From positions 1-64,000 of IMG/VR virus record IMGVR_UViG_3300047281_000098: a stretch of DNA of 64,000 nucleotides. One strand, 5' to 3'. The position numbers and the translations under genes are program-made. Source of the DNA: a virus. Shown here piece by piece: positions 25,238 through 57,467 of the stretch (position 1 is the first letter of the stretch; each line of letters opens with the position of its first letter). The notes beneath the pieces are model-generated. The model did no database searches, had not been told where the DNA came from, and saw nothing but the letters and a program-made list of their open reading frames with translations.

Positions 25238-28200
25238 ATGGCAAATACAAAAGTCAGTCAATTACCAAGTCTAAATATAGTAGATTCTACTACTATATTC
25301 CTTACTAGTAGCAATACATCAGGCACAGAGACAAGCTATCAAGCATCAATCGGAAATGTCTCTAAGGCAATTCTTAGCAATTTGACTATCAGTGATCAGA
25401 CGATTACTGGTACTACAGCGAACGCGAACATTATACTTACTCCCAACGGTACTGGATATGTATCAGTTCCTAGACTGGCGCTACCAGTGGGTTCTTTAGT
25501 AGAAGAAACTATTCCAATCATCCCAATCATTGCGAATGTTATTCTAAATCAACTATTAGAGTTCTCTACTAGTAATGTAGGCCTTGTTCCTCCGGCATAC
25601 GGTATCACAATTGGTATCCCGGCTCCTTGGGCTGTGCTTGAACTAACCGCCGATCCTAGTCCTGTATTACAAATCAACGATGTGCTATCAGGACCCGGAA
25701 TTCCTGTCCCCTCTGCTGCTACATTCATTGGATCAGGTGGATATTCTAATGTGGTTATTACTAACAAGACATTTGATGGGTTACCTCTGCCTCTGCCCGG
25801 TTATGGCACTGACATTGCCATTACACGAGAAGTGACACTGGCAAGCCTTGCGATGTCTACTATTGCCAACACCAATGTAGCACTGACTCCAGGTCTTGGC
25901 GGTGTCGTGGTAGTAGACGGCAGCATATTACCTTATGTTGATAATCTCTACACTCTTGGTTCACCTGAAAAACGATTTAGCAGAGCATATTTTGGTCCTG
26001 GCACCATTTATCTATTAGATGATATTCTAGGGGTTGACCTGACTTTGGCAGCATCCAATGGTAACTTAGTAGTAGGTGGCGGGTCAGGACTTAGTGTAGG
26101 TAAATTCAACTTATTCGGTAATACAATAACACTGGACAGCCCAACGGAAGACTTCTTTATTGGTAATGTCGGATCAACTGGTAATCTAACCGTCAACAGA
26201 CGATTCAATGTTGAGAATTCAACTGGTGCTTGGAAATTGTTTGATATTAACCAGTCGACTGGTAGTACCACATTAATTTCTAATGTAGTCTCTGATGCGA
26301 CCAAGGCAGCTTTTGAAATTATAGGTAGCACTTCACGCGATATTAATCCTCCTAATAATTTCGGAGTGTTACTACATACATCAGGAACAAGTAACTATCC
26401 GTCTCGTATTTACAATGACAGCTACGGCGATGGCACTACCAAGTATTCTGCTTATATTGGTCGACATGCCAGAGGAAATGCGCTTGCGCCCACTCAAACA
26501 CTAACCGGCGATATCATTAGTCGCATTGGATCTAACCCGGCGGATAGTTCAAACAGCTTTGCTCCTATCTCTACTACTCGCATTGATTTTGTTAATTCAG
26601 AAGATCAAACTCCAACGGCACGCGGTGGTCAGATTCAATTTTGGGCTACTCCAATCGGCAGTGATGTCATTGGTAAAGTAGTTACAGTGACGGATACTGA
26701 TTTAGTATTCAAACCATCAGCTAATAGAGGTATCACCTTCGCTGACAATACTCGTCAGACCACAGCATTCAATGCTTCTGCTGCTGTAACATACATCACG
26801 GCAGGATCAGGTCTGTCAGGTGGAGGAACAGGCAATGTTGCGCTGAACGCAACTGGTGTTCAGAATGTATTCTCTTACTCTAATAATCAGATTATCATCA
26901 CTGATGCTGGTTCAAAGAATCTAACACTAAGTCTACCGCAAGACATTAATATAAATTCATCAGTTACATTCTCAAATGTTACTGTGACTGGTAATTTGAA
27001 TGTAGAAGGCAATACGATTACAGCTAACAATCTGGTCATTCTAGACAAAGTTATATATCTTGCTAATACAGCAACAAGTAACACTGCTATCAATCAAGGC
27101 GGCATTGTACTTGGCAATGTGTCTGAACCGTGGTCACGAAGTATTCTATATGATTTGAGCAATGACCGTTGGGATACAGATGGTGCCGGATTAAAGACAC
27201 TGGCTCTTACCGCCGGTGATGTGTATGTAGCTAATCTATTTGCTAATGGCGTTGCTCACTTCGGTGAAGCTGTCGCAACAATAGATTATCCTAATGCCAC
27301 AATCCAAGCTGATAGTGATATTAATTCGTACAGTCAAATTGTTGCTGTAAATCATAGCTCAGGAACTGATGCTAGTACAGACTTTGTTGCGGTAAATAAT
27401 ATCGGAAATGACGGTAACAATTACATAGATTTGGGTATTAATTCTAGCAATTATTCAAATGTTGATTACGGACTGACTGGACCAAATGATGGGTATCTAT
27501 TCATCAACGGAGGTAACTTAGCTGTAGGCACGCAAACTGCTGGTAAAGTTATTGATTTCTTTACAGGTGGAACTGCGAATACTACATTCATTCGTGCTAA
27601 CATCACTGATATTGGTCTTAACGTGTTTGGTAATGTGTCAGCACAAAACGCTAATCTTGGCAACGCAACAACGTCTAATTACTTTATTGGTAACGGATAT
27701 TATCTAACTGGTATTCGCGGAGCGAATGTAACCGGAGCAGTAGCTTACGCAACTACTGCTAACTCAGTAGCAGGTGCTAATGTATCCGGTGCCGTTAACC
27801 TATCTACTTACGCAACTACAGCAAATGCGGTAGCAGGCGCTAATGTATCAGGTGCTGTTAATCTGGCAACATATGCGACACAAGCAAACGCCGTAGCAGG
27901 TGCTAATGTCTCTGGTACAGTAGCTAATGCGACATACGCAATAAGTTCCGGCTCAGTAACCAATGCGTTGACAGTTAACAACAGTGGTACAGGCGCCGCA
28001 TCAGGAGCTACATTCAATGGCGGCAGTGCTGTTACTATCTCTTACAATACAGTTGGAGCACCAAAAGCTGACGGTACAGGGGCATCTGGCACTTGGGGTA
28101 TCAGTATCTCAGGAAGTTCAGCTTCGTCTAACTCAGTAGCAGGTGCTAATGTCTCAGGTGCTGTGGCATACGCAACTACTGCTAACTCAGTAGCAGGTGC

Positions 28201-28969
28201 CAATGTCTCCGGTACTGTTGCTAACGCTAACTACGCTGCTTACGCAGGTAATGTTACTATTGCCGGCCAAGCTAACATCACTTCAGTTGGAACTCTAACA
28301 AGTCTGACAATAGGTGCTGGTAATCTAACTACTAATCCAATCACACTAACCTCAGGATCACTACAAACATCTACTTCAGCGGGAGATTTTGAATACGATG
28401 GTAAAGTCGCATACTTCACTCCATCTGATGCGCAACGTGGTATCATCCCTGCGATTCAAGTATTCATTCCAAATGCCAATGTTGCGTATTCCAATACGAC
28501 TGCGTTACAATCTATGTTTGGTCTGACAAATGGAGTAGGTGTCACCGCTAACACTAAGTATTTGTACAGAATATGTGGCACCGTTCGCAAATCTAGTACA
28601 GCAACCGCGTCAATGCAATACGCAATGGAGGTGAACGGCGGCGCGACTATTCAACGACATTATTATCTAGTTAATCCATGTGGTGGCGCCGCACAGACAA
28701 CAGTGACTACAGCAACTATGATGAGTAATTATTTAACTAGTGGGTTTGGCACTGCGGTAACAGTAACAAATACCATATCATCTTCTGCTGGGTTTTACAA
28801 TTTCATTATTGACGGCGAGATAGAAATATTAACATCCGGCCAGATTAATCCACAAGTTGGATTTACTGGTACGCTCGGAACATCATCTTACATCGAAGCC
28901 GGATCGTCATTTCAAATATGGCCAGTTGGTAACATCACCGGCAATACTACAGTAGGTAACTGGTCGTAA
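25238..28969 (+). CDS. tail fibre / long virion fibre protein
   Basis: 1243 aa, N/T/G/S-rich, N-terminal KVSQLP, internal GANVSGAV repeats. Confidence 0.85.
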   Translation: MANTKVSQLPSLNIVDSTTIFLTSSNTSGTETSYQASIGNVSKAILSNLTISDQTITGTTANANIILTPNGTGYVSVPRLALPVGSLVEETIPIIPIIANVILNQLLEFSTSNVGLVPPAYGITIGIPAPWAVLELTADPSPVLQINDVLSGPGIPVPSAATFIGSGGYSNVVITNKTFDGLPLPLPGYGTDIAITREVTLASLAMSTIANTNVALTPGLGGVVVVDGSILPYVDNLYTLGSPEKRFSRAYFGPGTIYLLDDILGVDLTLAASNGNLVVGGGSGLSVGKFNLFGNTITLDSPTEDFFIGNVGSTGNLTVNRRFNVENSTGAWKLFDINQSTGSTTLISNVVSDATKAAFEIIGSTSRDINPPNNFGVLLHTSGTSNYPSRIYNDSYGDGTTKYSAYIGRHARGNALAPTQTLTGDIISRIGSNPADSSNSFAPISTTRIDFVNSEDQTPTARGGQIQFWATPIGSDVIGKVVTVTDTDLVFKPSANRGITFADNTRQTTAFNASAAVTYITAGSGLSGGGTGNVALNATGVQNVFSYSNNQIIITDAGSKNLTLSLPQDININSSVTFSNVTVTGNLNVEGNTITANNLVILDKVIYLANTATSNTAINQGGIVLGNVSEPWSRSILYDLSNDRWDTDGAGLKTLALTAGDVYVANLFANGVAHFGEAVATIDYPNATIQADSDINSYSQIVAVNHSSGTDASTDFVAVNNIGNDGNNYIDLGINSSNYSNVDYGLTGPNDGYLFINGGNLAVGTQTAGKVIDFFTGGTANTTFIRANITDIGLNVFGNVSAQNANLGNATTSNYFIGNGYYLTGIRGANVTGAVAYATTANSVAGANVSGAVNLSTYATTANAVAGANVSGAVNLATYATQANAVAGANVSGTVANATYAISSGSVTNALTVNNSGTGAASGATFNGGSAVTISYNTVGAPKADGTGASGTWGISISGSSASSNSVAGANVSGAVAYATTANSVAGANVSGTVANANYAAYAGNVTIAGQANITSVGTLTSLTIGAGNLTTNPITLTSGSLQTSTSAGDFEYDGKVAYFTPSDAQRGIIPAIQVFIPNANVAYSNTTALQSMFGLTNGVGVTANTKYLYRICGTVRKSSTATASMQYAMEVNGGATIQRHYYLVNPCGGAAQTTVTTATMMSNYLTSGFGTAVTVTNTISSSAGFYNFIIDGEIEILTSGQINPQVGFTGTLGTSSYIEAGSSFQIWPVGNITGNTTVGNWS
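27719..28235 (+). repeat. 18-aa fibre repeats (A)GANVSGAVxxATxANxV
   Basis: six GANV(S/T)G units in two clusters; boundaries approximate. Confidence 0.8.
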
Positions 28970-50598: not shown

Positions 50599-50874
50599 AT
50601 GGCAATTTTAAATACACACGCACATGGATACTTTAGAGCAGTTGAATACGAGACAATAGAAGTAATAGACATGCCTCGCACCTACGGCGCCAAGAAAGTA
50701 TACACGTATGATTGTAGGGCAAAGTCAGAAGATCCAAGCATTATTGTAAAATGGTGCAGAAGAAACTTTGGGCAGCGAGGTGATGGTTGGGACTTTACTT
50801 TTCACTCAGACCGTGTTACAATAGAGATTACAAAAGACGAGTTTAAGACAATGTACGAAATGTGGAAACTATAA
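50599..50874 (+). CDS. LRW-related protein
   Basis: WCRRNFGQRGDGW...MYEMWKL. Confidence 0.78.
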   Translation: MAILNTHAHGYFRAVEYETIEVIDMPRTYGAKKVYTYDCRAKSEDPSIIVKWCRRNFGQRGDGWDFTFHSDRVTIEITKDEFKTMYEMWKL

Positions 50875-51419
50875 TGGCAAATAATGTAATGATAGATTTG
50901 GAAACGCTGGACACAAGTCCATTCTGCGTTATCCTCACGATTGGAGCAGTAGTATTCGACCCTAAGGGCAACGGTATCGTTGACAAGATTGATCTGCGAC
51001 CTTCAATTGAAGAACAACTTGATATGGGCAGAGTTATCAACGATGAAACTGTTAAGTGGTGGGGCAATCAAAGTGAGGCGGCGCAACATGAAGCACTAGG
51101 TGATCATGACCGAATTCCCTTCAAGGAAGCAATGGAGAAACTTCATAAATTCTGTTGGAACAAAGGTAACCCCTGGAGTCACGGCGCAGCGTTTGACATT
51201 GTAGCAGTGGAAACATCTTGGGCCAGCTTTAAGATGCAACCACCATGGGACTTTTACAAAGTACGAGACACACGAACATTGTTTGATGTTACTGGAGTGA
51301 ATCTTAAAGACGGTGGTTATGTGACAACTCACAAGGCTTCCGAAGATGCGGCACGTCAGGCATTCATTGTACAGAAGGCGTATAAGATTCTCATTGCCGC
51401 CGGAGTAACCCCTCCGTGA
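50874..51419 (+). CDS. DEDDh 3'-5' exonuclease (DexA-like)
   Basis: MIDLETL, SHGAAFD, RDTRT, HKASEDA; start at 50874. Confidence 0.9.
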   Translation: MANNVMIDLETLDTSPFCVILTIGAVVFDPKGNGIVDKIDLRPSIEEQLDMGRVINDETVKWWGNQSEAAQHEALGDHDRIPFKEAMEKLHKFCWNKGNPWSHGAAFDIVAVETSWASFKMQPPWDFYKVRDTRTLFDVTGVNLKDGGYVTTHKASEDAARQAFIVQKAYKILIAAGVTPP

Positions 51420-51423
51420 AATT

Positions 51424-51678
51424 ATGAAGATTAATCCTAAACTTAAACCAGACGAGTTAGCTCTTTTATCAGTAGATTCTGCTAGGAGATATTTTCTATT
51501 AAACGTTAATACCACTAAACTAGCACCGGACGAAGATTCTATACAGCATGAGTTTGCACTGTGGTTAGAAACAGAATACTCCTGTAAAATGTGGCGCCCG
51601 TATAAAGGAGCAACAAGACGGTTGAAATTTAATGATATGGCTAAATTAGTTTGGTTTAAACTCAAATATGAAATTTAA
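51424..51678 (+). CDS. LRW-related protein
   Basis: ends FNDMAKLVWFKLKYEI. Confidence 0.7.
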   Translation: MKINPKLKPDELALLSVDSARRYFLLNVNTTKLAPDEDSIQHEFALWLETEYSCKMWRPYKGATRRLKFNDMAKLVWFKLKYEI

Positions 51679-52267
51679 CGGTGACGTTGACATTGATCTA
51701 GGAAACAGGGACTTACTGTTGGAACACATTAAGCATATTCCTGCGGCTATGCGTAATATAACACCTATAAGAAAGCACTCCACTGGAATTCATATCACTG
51801 ATATTCCATATGATCCTATCAATAATATCGCGTCAATTGACTATGCCGCTGCTGAATCGCGCGGGTATTTTAAGCTGGACTTGCTGAATGTTCATGTATA
51901 TGCTAATGTACGTGATGAGTCACATTTAGTAGAATTAATGCGCGAGCCAGATTGGAATCTACTGAATGACAGAGAATTTGTAAGTACGCTTATACATTTA
52001 GGTAATCATTATCAAAGTATACAGCGTATGATTGAGCCTATCAATAGTATTCCCAGACTGGCTATGTTTCTGGCAATGATCAGACCTGCAAAAAAGCATC
52101 TGATAGGCTTGCCATGGAGTGAGGTTGCGAAGACTATTTGGGAGAAAGATAGTGACGGCGGGTATAGCTTTAAGAGAAGTCACGCAGTTGCGTATTCACA
52201 GTTAGTCACTGTACATATGAATCTGTTACAGGAAATGCCTGTTACGAAATTCTTTTCACAAGAGTAA
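51668..52267 (+). CDS. miniature DNA polymerase III alpha (C-family) catalytic core
   Basis: GDVDID, KHSTGI, GYFKLDLLN, LAMIRP, YSFKRSHAVAYS in only 199 aa. Confidence 0.85.
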   Translation: MKFNGDVDIDLGNRDLLLEHIKHIPAAMRNITPIRKHSTGIHITDIPYDPINNIASIDYAAAESRGYFKLDLLNVHVYANVRDESHLVELMREPDWNLLNDREFVSTLIHLGNHYQSIQRMIEPINSIPRLAMFLAMIRPAKKHLIGLPWSEVAKTIWEKDSDGGYSFKRSHAVAYSQLVTVHMNLLQEMPVTKFFSQE

Positions 52268-52622
52268 TGGATCTTCTTTTTGATCGACGCTTGCTTAGGT
52301 CTGACATACTACATACGGGGCCGTGTAGTATTACTAAGCTTTTGTTATTGAATGTTCTGATATATGGTCTGAAGATTGCCCAATCTTCTTTTAAAAACAA
52401 GTTGATAGGGATAAGTCTGTTGCTTTCCCACCACCATATATCACCTAATTCTAGAAATTTCTCTTTAACTGCTAAGTCCTGTATAGCACCATAATCATAT
52501 ATAGTGGTAACGACATCATCACGATTCTGAACAATTCCCACGTAGTCTTGGCTGGCGTATGAACAGATTGTGATGAAAGGGTGATTCTCGCTTAGGCGTT
52601 TAAAGAATTCGTTAGGTATCAT
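52242..52622 (-). CDS. conserved hypothetical late protein
   Basis: TAAATA upstream on minus strand; WWWESNRLIPIN; basic tail. Confidence 0.75.
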   Translation of the reverse strand: MIPNEFFKRLSENHPFITICSYASQDYVGIVQNRDDVVTTIYDYGAIQDLAVKEKFLELGDIWWWESNRLIPINLFLKEDWAIFRPYIRTFNNKSLVILHGPVCSMSDLSKRRSKRRSITLVKRIS

Positions 52623-52727
52623 TGATAATGTGTATTAAGTTTATTTATCTGCGGAAAGAATTCGGGTATTATTCCTGAATGACTAAATATAAGATATGCT
52701 AAATATAACATTAGAAGCGAATAACAA

Positions 52728-53501
52728 ATGTATGCAACCTCAGTTTTCTCCTATATCCCTCGGCAAATTGTCGTTGTCTTATCCGGCAACTCGGTAAGGA
52801 AATATATGCCCGTTTATGCTAAACCACTCACATTACACAAAGGTGTCGACAACCAGCTGCAGTTTCAGTTCCTTAATCAAGAGCAGAAACCTGTTAATAT
52901 CACTGGTGCGGAGATCACATGCCGTATTTTAAACTATCAAGGTAATACTGTGCTTCTTCAGAAAGCACTGACCCTACAATTAGCAGCCACAGGTATTGCT
53001 GCTCTTCAACTAAACGCAGCAGACATTGAGGGTATTGATCCACAAAAATGCTATTACACATTAGAAATTCCAGTTGGTAGTTTCAATTACCCAGTATTCG
53101 TGGATCAGAACGCAGGTGGTCGCGGTGATCTAAACATCGTTAATTCTATTCTACCAAGCTTTGTGCCGTCACAAAGTGTGTCTATTCCTACTGGGCAATT
53201 GTTCCCGAATAACAATTCAAGCGCAAATGCCAATTCAAACGCACTAACATATTTTACCAGTGTTTGGTCAACTGATGATAATCCAATTTCAACTATTCAA
53301 GCAGAATACACTGGGTTTTATGGTAACGTTCAGATTCAAGGTTCCACAATAGTAGACGGTGATTGGTATAACATTGGAAACACGTATGTCTATTCAAACG
53401 TATCCGATACCATTGGATATTCCTTTACTGGATATCATCCATACATCCAAGTACAATTCATCAGTAATATTGGTGATGTTACTAACATTTTAAGAAGATA
53501 G
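52728..53501 (+). CDS. putative virion structural protein
   Basis: late boxes upstream; beta-rich; baseplate-like QFLNQEQKPVNITG segment. Confidence 0.65.
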   Translation: MYATSVFSYIPRQIVVVLSGNSVRKYMPVYAKPLTLHKGVDNQLQFQFLNQEQKPVNITGAEITCRILNYQGNTVLLQKALTLQLAATGIAALQLNAADIEGIDPQKCYYTLEIPVGSFNYPVFVDQNAGGRGDLNIVNSILPSFVPSQSVSIPTGQLFPNNNSSANANSNALTYFTSVWSTDDNPISTIQAEYTGFYGNVQIQGSTIVDGDWYNIGNTYVYSNVSDTIGYSFTGYHPYIQVQFISNIGDVTNILRR

Positions 53502-53551
53502 ATCACCGTATCTATTGTATTTTCGTGTTCACTATGTTATAATAGATGAAC

Positions 53552-54532
53552 ATGTTTGATATTCTATCTATATTACCTGGCAAGAAAAAAACAACGAGTA
53601 GCGGCTGGACAAGTTTCAACGCTGTTTGTTGTAGCCATCTTGGACACAAGTCCGATCGCCGTATGCGCGGCGGTATTAAGTTTGACGGTCAATCCAAATG
53701 GACCATGAACTGTTTCAATTGTAGATACTCATGTAATTTTGTATTAGGCAAATCAATAAGCCCAAAAACTAGACAGCTTCTTATTTGGTGCGGTATTGAC
53801 AGTGAACAGATTCAACGATGGAGTCTGGAGAGTTTACAACATAAAGACTTACTGGACTTTTCAGGTGACGTTCTACCTCGTAAAAAAGTAAAATTCAAAG
53901 AGCAGGAATTGCCAACTGATGCTGAATTAATAAACGTAAACAACCCTGATCATAAGATATACACTGACTATTTGATCAAACGACATATTGATCCTAATGA
54001 ATATCCGTTTATGGTAACTCCGCATATTCAGGGTAGAAATAACAATCGCATAATTGTACCGTATACTTATAAAAATAAGATCGTTGGACATACTAGTAGA
54101 TACCTAGATAATAAATTACCAAAGTATATCAATTCTCAACAGCACGGATATGTATTCGGATTTGACTTTCAAAAACCTGAATGGAATATATGTCTGGTAG
54201 TTGAGGGTATATTTGATGCGCTGAGTTTGAATGCGTGCGCTACAATGCATAACACAATCAATGACGATCAAGCACAGGTATTAGCACAGTTAAACAAACA
54301 GATAATAGTAGTACCGGATAGAGACCGTGCCGGATTAGAAATATGTAGTCGTGCGTTAGAGTTAGGATATAGTATTAGCTTACCAAATTGGCACGTTGAT
54401 GTAAAGGATGTTAACGATGCGATAATCCGTTACGGAAAGCTTCCAACGCTAATGAGTATATTACAAGCAGCCACGATGTCTAAAATTAAAATCGAAATGC
54501 AAAGGAAAAAAATTGAAAAAACAAGAATCTAA
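53552..54532 (+). CDS. DNA primase
   Basis: Zn-binding CC..CFNC, PKYIN, TOPRIM VEGIFDA, PDRD, KDVND; start 53552 or 53546. Confidence 0.93.
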   Translation: MFDILSILPGKKKTTSSGWTSFNAVCCSHLGHKSDRRMRGGIKFDGQSKWTMNCFNCRYSCNFVLGKSISPKTRQLLIWCGIDSEQIQRWSLESLQHKDLLDFSGDVLPRKKVKFKEQELPTDAELINVNNPDHKIYTDYLIKRHIDPNEYPFMVTPHIQGRNNNRIIVPYTYKNKIVGHTSRYLDNKLPKYINSQQHGYVFGFDFQKPEWNICLVVEGIFDALSLNACATMHNTINDDQAQVLAQLNKQIIVVPDRDRAGLEICSRALELGYSISLPNWHVDVKDVNDAIIRYGKLPTLMSILQAATMSKIKIEMQRKKIEKTRI

Positions 54533-55952
54533 GAAACAACTTGAATATACTCCTGATGTTCAGAAATTATTTTTGCGAATGATGATAACTAACTCGGAGT
54601 TATACACCCGTGTTATGAACATTATGAACAGCGAGAATTTTGACAGATCGCTGCGCCCAGTGGCAGAAATGTTTAAAGAACATACTGACAAGTATAAGAT
54701 TTTACCTGATGCCACTCAGATTAAAGCAACAACCGGGATTGATATTGAACCGGTGCCTGAATTAAGTGACGGACATTTTGAATGGTTCTTTGATGAGTTT
54801 GAAGCATTCACTAAGCGACAGGAACTTGAGCGTGCGATTCTTAAAGCAGCAGACTTGCTTGAGAAGGGTGATTTTTCTCCTGTGGAAAAGCTAATCAAGG
54901 ACGCAGTTCAAATTAGCCTACAGAAAGACATGGGGACTGACTACTTTGCTGACCCCGCACATCGTATCAATAAGTATTTTAACTCAGGTGGTCAAGTATC
55001 AACTGGCTGGCCACAGATGGATCGTATTTTGTACGGTGGCATGAGTCGCGGCGAACTTAATATCTTTGCAGGTGGCTCTGGTTCTGGTAAGTCACTGGTC
55101 ATGATGAATTTGGCATTGAATTGGCTACAAGTTGGATTGAGCGGAGTTTATATTACACTAGAACTTTCAGAAGAACTAACCTCACTGCGTACTGATGCGA
55201 TGTTAACCAGTATGGGAACTAAAGATATTCGTAAGGATATTGACAATACTGCTTTAAAGGTAGCATTGATAGGGAAGAAGTCTGGTAAGTATCGTGTCAA
55301 GGGACTACCTGCGCAAAGTAATGTCAATGATATTCGTGCTTATCTGAAAGAAGTTCAAATTCAAACTGGTATCAAGATCGACTTTGTTATGGTCGATTAT
55401 CTTGACTTGGTTATGCCAGTATCTGTTAAAGTTAACCCCAACGACCAGTTTATTAAAGACAAATATGTAGCTGAAGAATTGCGAAATTTAAGCAAAGAAT
55501 TAGGCGTGTTGTTAGTTACAGCATCACAGTTGAATCGTTCAGCAGTTGATGAAATTGAGTTTGATCATAGTCACATTGCAGGTGGTATCTCTAAGATTAA
55601 TACAGCGGATAACGTGTTCGGTATCTTCACAAGCCGTAGTATGCGTGAACGTGGTAAGTATCAGATTCAATGTATGAAGTCGCGTAGTTCAACAGGTGTT
55701 GGTATGAAAGTTGATTTGGAATACAACATTGAAACGATGCGTATTACTGACGATGACCCTGAGGGATATGCGGATCAGCAAGCAAAATATACTCCTAAAC
55801 CTAGTCCTAATGATTTAATGACTAGGATGAAGCCTACTCCATACACTGATATTTCTCAACTATCAGATAATTCAGAACCACTGACCAAGAAAATAGTGGC
55901 AAATGTTCAGGGTAGTAAACTAAATGCGCTACTGAATAGTTTAAAGAAATAA
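54513..55952 (+). CDS. replicative DnaB-like helicase (T4 gp41-like)
   Basis: GGSGSGKS, TLEL, VDYLD, TASQLNR, KSR. Confidence 0.95.
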   Translation: MKKQESKKQLEYTPDVQKLFLRMMITNSELYTRVMNIMNSENFDRSLRPVAEMFKEHTDKYKILPDATQIKATTGIDIEPVPELSDGHFEWFFDEFEAFTKRQELERAILKAADLLEKGDFSPVEKLIKDAVQISLQKDMGTDYFADPAHRINKYFNSGGQVSTGWPQMDRILYGGMSRGELNIFAGGSGSGKSLVMMNLALNWLQVGLSGVYITLELSEELTSLRTDAMLTSMGTKDIRKDIDNTALKVALIGKKSGKYRVKGLPAQSNVNDIRAYLKEVQIQTGIKIDFVMVDYLDLVMPVSVKVNPNDQFIKDKYVAEELRNLSKELGVLLVTASQLNRSAVDEIEFDHSHIAGGISKINTADNVFGIFTSRSMRERGKYQIQCMKSRSSTGVGMKVDLEYNIETMRITDDDPEGYADQQAKYTPKPSPNDLMTRMKPTPYTDISQLSDNSEPLTKKIVANVQGSKLNALLNSLKK

Positions 55953-55975: not shown

Positions 55976-56224
55976 ATGCAAACAAATACTCGCAGCCTTC
56001 TGGAAGAATTAGAGTCTATTAGTCATAATCGTGATACAACTCACATTATAGAAAGTAGAGCTAATAATATTATTACCAGTGCTATTAATTTATTAGAATT
56101 AATGAATAAGCACTATACGGAAGAGCAATGTCAAATCCTGGAAAGAAAACTACTAGGTGCTATAAAAAGCAGAGACCAAAGTAGATTTGCAAAATCTTTA
56201 AGGAAAAATAGTGAAACTGAATGA
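55976..56224 (+). CDS. hypothetical late protein
   Basis: TAAATA 4 nt upstream of ATG. Confidence 0.72.
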   Translation: MQTNTRSLLEELESISHNRDTTHIIESRANNIITSAINLLELMNKHYTEEQCQILERKLLGAIKSRDQSRFAKSLRKNSETE

Positions 56225-57467
56225 ACTAAAACACCCTAGCGCACTAAATGAAGACCTTAGTGATTGGATAGGAACTCACGGAGCAGCGGCTGTAAAAGGC
56301 GGAATAGATAAATTTAAAGGTAATGCTGAAGGTAGCTTGAGTACTGTTGACCGAATGGCAAGAGATGGATTCATTAAAGATTTCATCGGGCGCGCATCTG
56401 CTAACATCAAAAGTGCAATTGCTAGCGGAATAGTTATCCCCCCAGTAGCAGGTCAATCTGCGCCTGTGGCAGGTCAAACAGCAACAGCAGCCCCAGAGAC
56501 TCCTGAACAAAAACGTATTAGATTACAAAAGACGCAACAGCAAACGCTTGATAAGTCCAGTGGTCAATTCAGTAAGCTGCCAAACCCTGTCTCGGCACAA
56601 GCCGAGACTCCTGAACAAAAACGTATTAGATTACAAAAGACGCAACAGCAATCACAAGCTGGTGCCAGTGGACAATTCAGTAAGTTACCGGCAAATCAAG
56701 TAGCAACGCAATCCGCTAATATCAGGACAGCAAAACAATTAGCCGCAGCTCCACAAACAACTGTAAAGCCAGTTGCTGTACCCGTACAAACCCCCGGTGA
56801 GAAAAGAGCAGCAAGACTGGCCACTGCTACAGCCGCATTAAGGGAATCATCAACATATAGCAAATTAAATGTTGTGTTTGAATCAATGATGGAAGCAGGC
56901 AACGCCACTAGCAGTGTTAGCAGCTACTTACAAAAAATGTTTACTCAGTACATGCACGGAGTTGATACATCATCACAATCTGCGAAAATCAAAGAATTGA
57001 GTGATGCTGTTGAACAATCATATTCAATGACAGACGGTGGAAAAGCAGCTATTGCTCCTCTTACACAACTAGCAAACTTAGGATTTGCGCTATCGCATAG
57101 CAACAAAGGCAGAGATGCAGCCGCTGCCCCGGCCACTGCGGCAGAACAGCCTGGTTTTTTGAGTGGACTAACACAGGGTGCTAGTTCAGCACAGGGTATA
57201 GCACCCGTAGCTGACGGCACCGCATATGCTAAAGCAAAAGCAGCAGTGACTGTTCTTGATAAAAAAGGTAAACAGCGAATAGGATCGTTAATACAGAAAT
57301 CTCTTGCGACTCCTAATGCGGCATTGGCGCCAGCAGCAGACCGGGCTAGTGCTGAAGCTGCTATGCGTGCTAGACGGGCACCGGTTGTACCGCAGTCTCC
57401 CGCGCAGCGTCGAGGCGGTATGCAGGTCGCCGAACAAAAAATAGTGAAAAAATGGGGCGAAGAATAA
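56211..57467 (+). CDS. putative internal head protein, Ala/Gln-rich
   Basis: leader MKLNEL..LNE; internal duplication. Confidence 0.7.
   Translation: MKLNELKHPSALNEDLSDWIGTHGAAAVKGGIDKFKGNAEGSLSTVDRMARDGFIKDFIGRASANIKSAIASGIVIPPVAGQSAPVAGQTATAAPETPEQKRIRLQKTQQQTLDKSSGQFSKLPNPVSAQAETPEQKRIRLQKTQQQSQAGASGQFSKLPANQVATQSANIRTAKQLAAAPQTTVKPVAVPVQTPGEKRAARLATATAALRESSTYSKLNVVFESMMEAGNATSSVSSYLQKMFTQYMHGVDTSSQSAKIKELSDAVEQSYSMTDGGKAAIAPLTQLANLGFALSHSNKGRDAAAAPATAAEQPGFLSGLTQGASSAQGIAPVADGTAYAKAKAAVTVLDKKGKQRIGSLIQKSLATPNAALAPAADRASAEAAMRARRAPVVPQSPAQRRGGMQVAEQKIVKKWGEE
56496..56651 (+). repeat. 48-bp exact direct repeat with 108-bp period
   Basis: ETPEQKRIRLQKTQQQ encoded identically at 56496-56543 and 56604-56651. 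Confidence 0.92.

Follow-up and report, generated by a model that had tools for sequence, protein, structure and literature searches.

The gene at the center of this study is an open reading frame (ORF) of 199 codons without internal stops. It lies on a phage contig of 105,264 bp, an IMG/VR fragment that is ~30% complete, and the first 64 kb of this contig (64,000 nucleotides) constitute the window, i.e. the whole stretch of DNA analyzed here. In the vicinity of the ORF, the window encodes a stand-alone exonuclease, a convergently oriented small protein, a primase and a replicative helicase; a second polymerase-related gene, followed by a clamp-loader gene, is found farther downstream, outside the window (Table 1). 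For brevity, we refer to the products of the 199-codon gene and of this second gene as the C-half and the N-half, respectively.

Table 1. Features of the locus and correspondence of C-half residues to E. coli DnaE; positions are those of the window or, where stated, of the contig
Feature	Position	Strand	Size, family or evidence
Predicted C-half of a split minimal DNA Pol III α (P0001)	51668..52267	+	199 aa, phrog_11778
Codons of D6-V-D8-I-D10, catalytic metal-binding strand (E. coli D401, D403, D405)	51683..51697	+	conservation in 94 homologs
C-half K36-H37..G40 (E. coli K510-H511..G514)			residue mapping
Codons of K69-L-D71, strand of the third catalytic Asp (E. coli K553, D555)	51872..51880	+	K69 and D71 in 94/94 homologs
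Finger motifs R139-P140 and K169-x-S-H172 (E. coli R639-P640, K758..H760)	52082..52183	+	conservation; hhalign
Convergent 126-aa gene	52242..52622	-	phrog_11637; 26-nt overlap with the C-half gene at the 3′ end of the latter
DEDDh 3′–5′ exonuclease, stand-alone, Rv2179c-like	50862..51419	+	PF16473, E=1e-32; phrog_255
DnaG-like primase (Toprim)	53546..54532	+	PF13155, PF08275
DnaB-family replicative helicase	54513..55952	+	PF03796, E=3e-17
Predicted N-half	contig 100433-100939 (outside the window)		168 aa; GRGS motif; PF07733; 48.8 kb downstream of the C-half
130-aa ORF, Cpn10/GroES-like gene, 99-aa ORF, RFC-like clamp-loader ATPase	contig 100985-102971 (L173 5986-7969)		downstream of the N-half

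A short ORF with the motifs of C-family polymerases

Near-identical DNA is present in freshwater and aquatic metagenome runs. Two of these DNA runs, neither of them flagged as a possible source sample, yielded contigs that cover positions 51580-52154 (X13) and 51751-53146 (X5) and together span the start and nearly the whole length of the ORF. Since both match with 0 differences, the ORF is not an assembly frameshift. RNA contigs from two metatranscriptomes cover neighboring genes, with the C-half ORF outside their coverage, and are uninformative on its expression.

The original prediction described the ORF as a miniature C-family polymerase that carries the motifs of DnaE in the right order and comprises all catalytic motifs within 199 residues. 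The order is borne out by a residue mapping against indexed E. coli DnaE, in which all five motifs, including those with the three catalytic aspartates, are colinear with their counterparts (Table 1). The encoded parts are the metal-binding DxDxD strand, the strand with the third Asp, and a reduced finger/template-binding module, with fingers shortened to ~130 residues. Furthermore, the spacing between D10 and K36 is only 26 residues, compared with ~105 in E. coli DnaE, which implies that the thumb has been deleted. The claim of a complete catalytic set did not stand, as the GRGS nucleotide-binding element of the Pol-β-like palm is absent from the 199-aa ORF and sits in the separate 168-aa ORF.

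A large and conserved family

The C-half belongs to the ‘DNA polymerase’ family phrog_11778, which has 197 positions (E=5e-55 over 4-190), and weakly matches the full-length phage DnaE family phrog_405 in a colinear manner (positions 774-811 of 1190). On its own, it gives no significant match in Pfam, NCBIfam and PDB in phmmer and profile searches, and an hhalign comparison of a shallow family alignment with E. coli DnaE recovers only the K-S-H motif (DnaE 739-766, 42% probability). Using tblastn, homologs of the same length that share 38-46% identity with it were identified in 96 records of isolate phages, without exception jumbo myoviruses akin to Rak2, PA5oct, Atu_ph07, GAP32 and CBB. In a metagenomic protein collection, we find 4068 clusters at 90% identity, with top matches of 189-206 aa. 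An exhaustive profile search, with clustering at 50% identity, returned 453 representatives, whose length is consistent. The C-half of this contig is part of a large, uncultured lineage from freshwater.

In a set of 94 diverse homologs, the catalytic residues D6, D8, K69 and D71 are invariant, and D10 is found in all except one (93/94). The finger residues are similarly conserved (R139 in 93, P140 in 94, K169 in 87 and H172 in 92 of the 94). A conserved clamp-binding motif at the C-terminus was not found in these sequences; the tails are variable, and an FF-like end occurs in ~5/94. The dN/dS ratio of the C-half is 0.11 in comparison with a 97%-identical relative, and the N-half has a ratio of 0.15; the comparison with L092 was left out, because an indel had shifted its codons out of register. 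Judged by these sequence data, the C-half is a conserved gene under selection and not a remnant. The notion of reduction rather than decay in the original prediction is thus upheld: the family is very large, its catalytic aspartates are conserved, and its members share the length of this uninterrupted ORF, rather than being full-length polymerases of which it is a frameshifted copy.

The missing part of the palm is encoded by a distant gene

A search of the whole contig with the Pfam model DNA_pol3_alpha gave one match, at 100709-100939, within the gene for the N-half. The protein matches positions 20-94 of PF07733 (E=4.5e-8) as well as phrog_11127 (E=1e-38), and aligns to residues 238-392 of E. 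coli DnaE. It also matches phrog_405 at positions 376-429 of 1190, colinear with the match of the C-half. Its GVGRGSS motif represents the GS nucleotide-binding loop of the Pol-β-like palm. The N-half ends in ...DEFLK, at a point where the next residues of E. coli DnaE lead into P-D401-F-D403, and the C-half begins with MKFNG-D-V-D, i.e. from D401 of DnaE onward. Accordingly, the break point is located within the Pol-β-like palm, between the helix that follows the GRGS loop and the DxD strand. Because the end of one protein and the start of the other abut on DnaE, they are consecutive pieces of one polymerase core, and only together do they provide a complete Pol-β-like palm with three catalytic aspartates and the GS loop. 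Of the options raised in the original prediction, a split replicase subunit is hence the one that gained ground, with a GRGS-containing partner that ends exactly where the C-half begins.

We found no intein fragments at the break. The alignment with DnaE extends to the very end of the N-half, and the DxD motif of the C-half starts at residue 6; this leaves no room for intein sequence, so that the association would have to be non-covalent.

Phage records that contain the N-half number 95 and virtually coincide with the 96 that contain the C-half, and the two genes are always far apart. For instance, they are found at 143.9 kb and 187.6 kb in PA5oct, where gp288 and gp220 form the pair, and ~46 kb apart on the circular map of a complete relative from IMG/VR (G001; 360,683 bp, with terminal repeats). 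The split is conserved among phages of Agrobacterium, of Pseudomonas and of freshwater.

Natural single-chain fusions

The exhaustive search of cluster representatives also uncovered a protein of 375 aa (P0166), which matches the profile of the C-half over residues 190-370. In its N-terminal part, it shares 35% identity with the N-half of this contig, and a linker of ~10 residues joins ...EFIK to the DxD motif. Two further fused clusters of 376 aa (P0274 and P0275; 78-81% identical) come from different assembly sources and have the same architecture, so that three natural fusions of 375-376 aa display the predicted order of N-half, linker and C-half. P0166 matches TIGR00594 unbroken across the junction (E=7.6e-15); its score of 54 bits is far below the cut-off of 434 bits, as expected for a minimal form. 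These natural fusions lend indirect support to the model of two halves that form one enzyme.

The fused forms stem from metagenomic assemblies in ENA and Logan. None was found in IMG/VR, and a word-based search for longer relatives likewise returned no fused form. A scan of JGI metagenomes gave two weak matches, with L171 being an ordinary full-length DnaE. In a tree of 94 C-half regions with midpoint rooting, the fused clade is placed ten nodes inside the stand-alone forms; the fusion therefore looks secondary, a view that depends on this rooting.

Structural models

In an AlphaFold model of the C-half alone (pLDDT 64), the fingers are well predicted, and the pLDDT is below 50 over most of residues 1-73, which form its part of the palm. 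With this model, Foldseek returned no significant match, the best one being Pol III α (3e0d) with E=1.2.

The fused homolog P0166 is predicted with a pLDDT of 85.5 and a pTM of 0.82, and most of residues 80-375 exceed a pLDDT of 85. The input alignment for this model (A3) comprised fused forms, N-halves and C-halves, and in the rows of the N-halves the final 11 residues are misplaced; the alignments A2 and A4 were unused for the N-half, as MAFFT stacks N-halves on C-halves in the presence of more than ~10 C-halves. The top 18 Foldseek matches of the fused model are all C-family polymerases, with E-values down to 5.7e-8, and comprise Pol III α from Taq and E. coli, M. tuberculosis DnaE1 and PolC; the next match has E=0.7. 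Using VIA-align, the model is superimposed on the DNA-bound ternary complex of Taq Pol III α (3e0d_A) with a Z-score of 22.0 and an rmsd of 3.1 Å over 294 residues, and on E. coli α with a Z-score of 16, spanning residues 44-773. Beyond the C-family polymerases, scores drop to Z 3.9, for generic Pol-β-like nucleotidyltransferases. The structural comparison with DnaE that was envisaged in the original prediction thus yields significant matches for the fused homolog and none for the C-half alone. The modeled fold fits a composite palm that requires both halves.

Genomic context

The context of both genes resembles that in PA5oct. On the side of the C-half, the shared order comprises the C-half, the convergent small gene, a structural protein, the DnaG-like primase and the DnaB helicase, with the last two corresponding to PA5oct gp223-224; primase and DnaB lie within 6 kb of the C-half in 44/50 loci. 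On the side of the N-half, the shared order comprises the N-half, a small ORF, the Cpn10-like gene, the RFC-like clamp loader and PhoH. The gene order around 100985-102971 matches that of PA5oct gp288-291, and the PhoH gene comes next, on the opposite strand.

The closest association is that with the convergent 126-aa gene, which is found directly downstream of the C-half in all 62 IMG/VR loci with room for it, and also in PA5oct. Its product combines a conserved core, WWWESNR..PIN, with a C-terminal tail that is basic (KRRSKRRSITLVKR); it shows 52-84% identity and is more conserved than the polymerase C-half. Searches in Pfam, NCBIfam, PDB profiles and the ESM Atlas gave no lead. Given the strict linkage, this protein could be a putative accessory factor.

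The DEDDh exonuclease, which the original prediction had placed two genes upstream of the ORF, is confirmed by its match to PF16473. It is linked to the C-half only within a freshwater subclade, i.e. upstream of it in 30/35 close and 2/24 distant loci, and it was detected nowhere in the complete G001 and PA5oct genomes. Because of this distribution, the exonuclease is no general partner of the mini polymerase.

With respect to other polymerase genes, a family B polymerase (PolB, PF00136), as originally expected from the T4-like replication genes, has not been displaced and is present in the complete relatives G001, whose C-half is 65% identical, and PA5oct. It was not found in the 105-kb contig, which is uninformative in this regard, since this ~30% fragment stops short of the place where PolB is expected; by PA5oct synteny, the PolB of this lineage would lie past the contig end. 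The stated absence of a PHP domain is borne out by Pfam searches: PHP (PF02811), HHH_6 (PF14579) and DNA_pol3_finger (PF17657) had no match in the contig (~30% of the genome), in G001 and in PA5oct, and the same models did match in control genomes.

As a side observation, the PolB model matches two open frames of 825 aa and 379 aa in PA5oct (MK797984.1, 217618-221395; L003-L005), which are ~2.5 kb apart. This suggests that the PolB gene of this phage is interrupted or split.

Relation to known systems

A split minimal Pol III α in group 2.2 jumbo phages has been described on the basis of sequence analysis (Iyer et al., 2021, Viruses 13:63, PMC7824862). According to that article, Rak2/PA5oct-like jumbo phages are its carriers, and it accompanies a family B polymerase, with a proposed role in the synthesis of one strand or in repair (PMC7824862). 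The concept of the split has therefore been in print since 2021, and the ORF described here adds no new one. It corresponds to the published system in several respects: two distant genes for an NTP-binding N-subdomain and a Mg2+/template-binding C-subdomain, no match to the other Pol III domains searched for (PHP, HhH and distal fingers), membership of the C-half in phrog_11778 and of the N-half in phrog_11127, T4-like replication genes that in the complete relatives include a family B polymerase, and synteny with PA5oct. Unlike the members from isolate phages, the C-half of this contig, at only 38-46% identity to them, belongs to a subclade with a DEDDh exonuclease directly upstream. Fused single-chain variants are not mentioned in the consulted part of the article (PMC7824862). 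In the literature, we found only this computational description of the split family and no experimental follow-up, and the genes are mentioned neither in the PA5oct omics paper nor in a 2026 jumbo-phage review.

The bacterial enzymes DnaE (E. coli 2hqa/5fkv, Taq 2hpi/3e0d) and PolC (3f2c) share the palm with GRGS, DxD and third Asp, as well as the RP and K-S-H finger motifs, and they align with the fused model with Z-scores of 14-22 over ~290-330 residues. Canonical members of these families are single chains of at least ~1000 aa that contain all domains and score above the model cut-offs, whereas the C-half has 199 aa and no Pfam or NCBIfam match. Even both halves together amount to ~370 aa in two chains, compared with 1100-1400 aa in one chain, and the two-chain core has no PHP, thumb, distal fingers, HhH β-binding, OB or τ-binding parts.

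In cyanobacteria, DnaE is likewise encoded by two distant genes, dnaE-n and dnaE-c, and a split intein splices the halves into one chain. The phage enzyme resembles it as a C-family polymerase derived from two distant genes, and differs from it in that the cyanobacterial break is located elsewhere and accompanied by intein fragments, whereas the phage break lies inside the palm and comes without intein parts. Group 3.2 jumbo phages and others, in turn, possess a host-like, single-chain DnaE with a PHP domain (phrog_405), which is their sole replicase. The mini polymerase, by contrast, is minimal, split and found beside PolB, although both of its halves match phrog_405 colinearly.

Proposed mechanism and alternative explanations

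Given the abutting halves, the fused forms and the conservation of the catalytic residues, we consider it very probable that the product of the ORF is one half of a minimal C-family polymerase core encoded in two parts, namely the C-terminal half, which binds Mg2+ and the template. Such a core is typical of group 2.2 jumbo phages, i.e. those resembling Rak2, PA5oct and Atu_ph07. Each half would be inactive alone, and both proteins would assemble non-covalently into an obligate heterodimer with one active site; we infer this assembly because the halves are colinear, co-occur and exist in fused form. The assembled enzyme of ~370 aa would consist of the palm and reduced fingers, and would possess no PHP, thumb, HhH, OB or conserved clamp-binding tail. 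Since it lacks the thumb, proofreading, HhH and a conserved clamp-binding tail, it would likely be a short-patch DNA polymerase of low processivity, working beside the family B replicase of the phage. It may serve in lagging-strand primer extension or gap filling, and a role in repair is equally possible; a function at the replication fork is suggested by the proximity of the C-half to primase and DnaB and of the N-half to the clamp loader.

In an extended form of this model, the mini Pol III would be a dedicated lagging-strand polymerase for primer extension and gap filling that is physically coupled to the primase-helicase, and the strictly linked 126-aa protein with its basic tail would make up for the absent thumb and clamp-binding parts as a third subunit, either by binding DNA or as a tether. 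We regard this arrangement as conceivable, if unlikely. It would resemble a process in Firmicutes, where a hand-off from DnaE to PolC has been reported.

A different possibility, and one that appears quite improbable to us, is that the two-subunit enzyme is active but neither a DNA replicase nor a repair polymerase, and instead acts, for example, as a template-independent terminal transferase, as an RNA-primer or ribonucleotide polymerase, or as the producer of a nucleotide signal in phage-host conflict. After all, the loss of the thumb and of most of the fingers could point to a non-replicative nucleotidyltransferase activity: clamp-binding and proofreading parts are missing as well, the C-terminal clamp-binding tail is not conserved, relatives already have a full PolB replicase, and the structural neighbors that follow the C-family polymerases are Pol-β-like nucleotidyltransferases. 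However, the finger motifs that align with R639-P640 and K758..H760 of DnaE are retained and conserved, both genes reside in replication modules (primase/DnaB and clamp loader, respectively), and the best structural match is a DNA-bound ternary complex of Pol III α.

That the 199-aa protein could function by itself as a C-family polymerase or nucleotidyltransferase, as the original prediction implied, now seems highly improbable, even though its three catalytic aspartates and two finger motifs are all conserved and thousands of genomes carry it as a separate ORF. The first strand of the palm, the GRGS loop and the following helix lie in the other gene, the protein alone is modeled with a disordered palm and a best Foldseek E-value of 1.2, the partner co-occurs in 95/96 phage records, and fused forms exist. 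A decoy, which had been offered as a further option, is not supported either. Finally, the view that the genes are what is left of a bacterial dnaE that was acquired, disrupted by rearrangement and is now decaying and non-functional could appeal to two pieces of one ancestral gene that are tens of kb apart and have lost most domains, but is effectively refuted by conservation, i.e. by thousands of clusters of consistent length, invariant catalytic residues, dN/dS values of 0.11-0.15 and a split shared by Agrobacterium, Pseudomonas and freshwater phages.

Read as two halves of one polymerase, the split family represents the core of the bacterial replicative polymerase in its smallest known version, naturally cut through the active site. 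If activity is restored when the halves combine, they would show which catalytic unit is the minimum for C-family polymerases and help to explain why a second polymerase is retained next to PolB in T4-like jumbo phages. If, moreover, the coupled three-subunit arrangement were true, no smaller C-family polymerase holoenzyme would be known, and it could be used as a working model of an ancestral Pol III core. What is new here is a divergent freshwater member, the rare natural single-chain fusions, one of which has a confidently predicted fold that matches C-family polymerases only, the strictly co-located 126-aa gene, and the limitation of the exonuclease linkage to a freshwater subclade. The fused forms could serve as single-chain constructs for biochemical or structural work.

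Further observations in the window

Two longer ORFs on the forward strand, of 1243 aa (25238-28969) and 418 aa (56211-57467), have no Pfam match, and the latter has no PHROG match either. Between 47756 and 51678, the forward strand carries tightly packed small ORFs of 61-146 aa, most of which end in F-x-L-R-W or a variant thereof; this run leads to the exonuclease. The ORF of 84 aa that immediately precedes the C-half (51424-51678) ends in an LKY variant.
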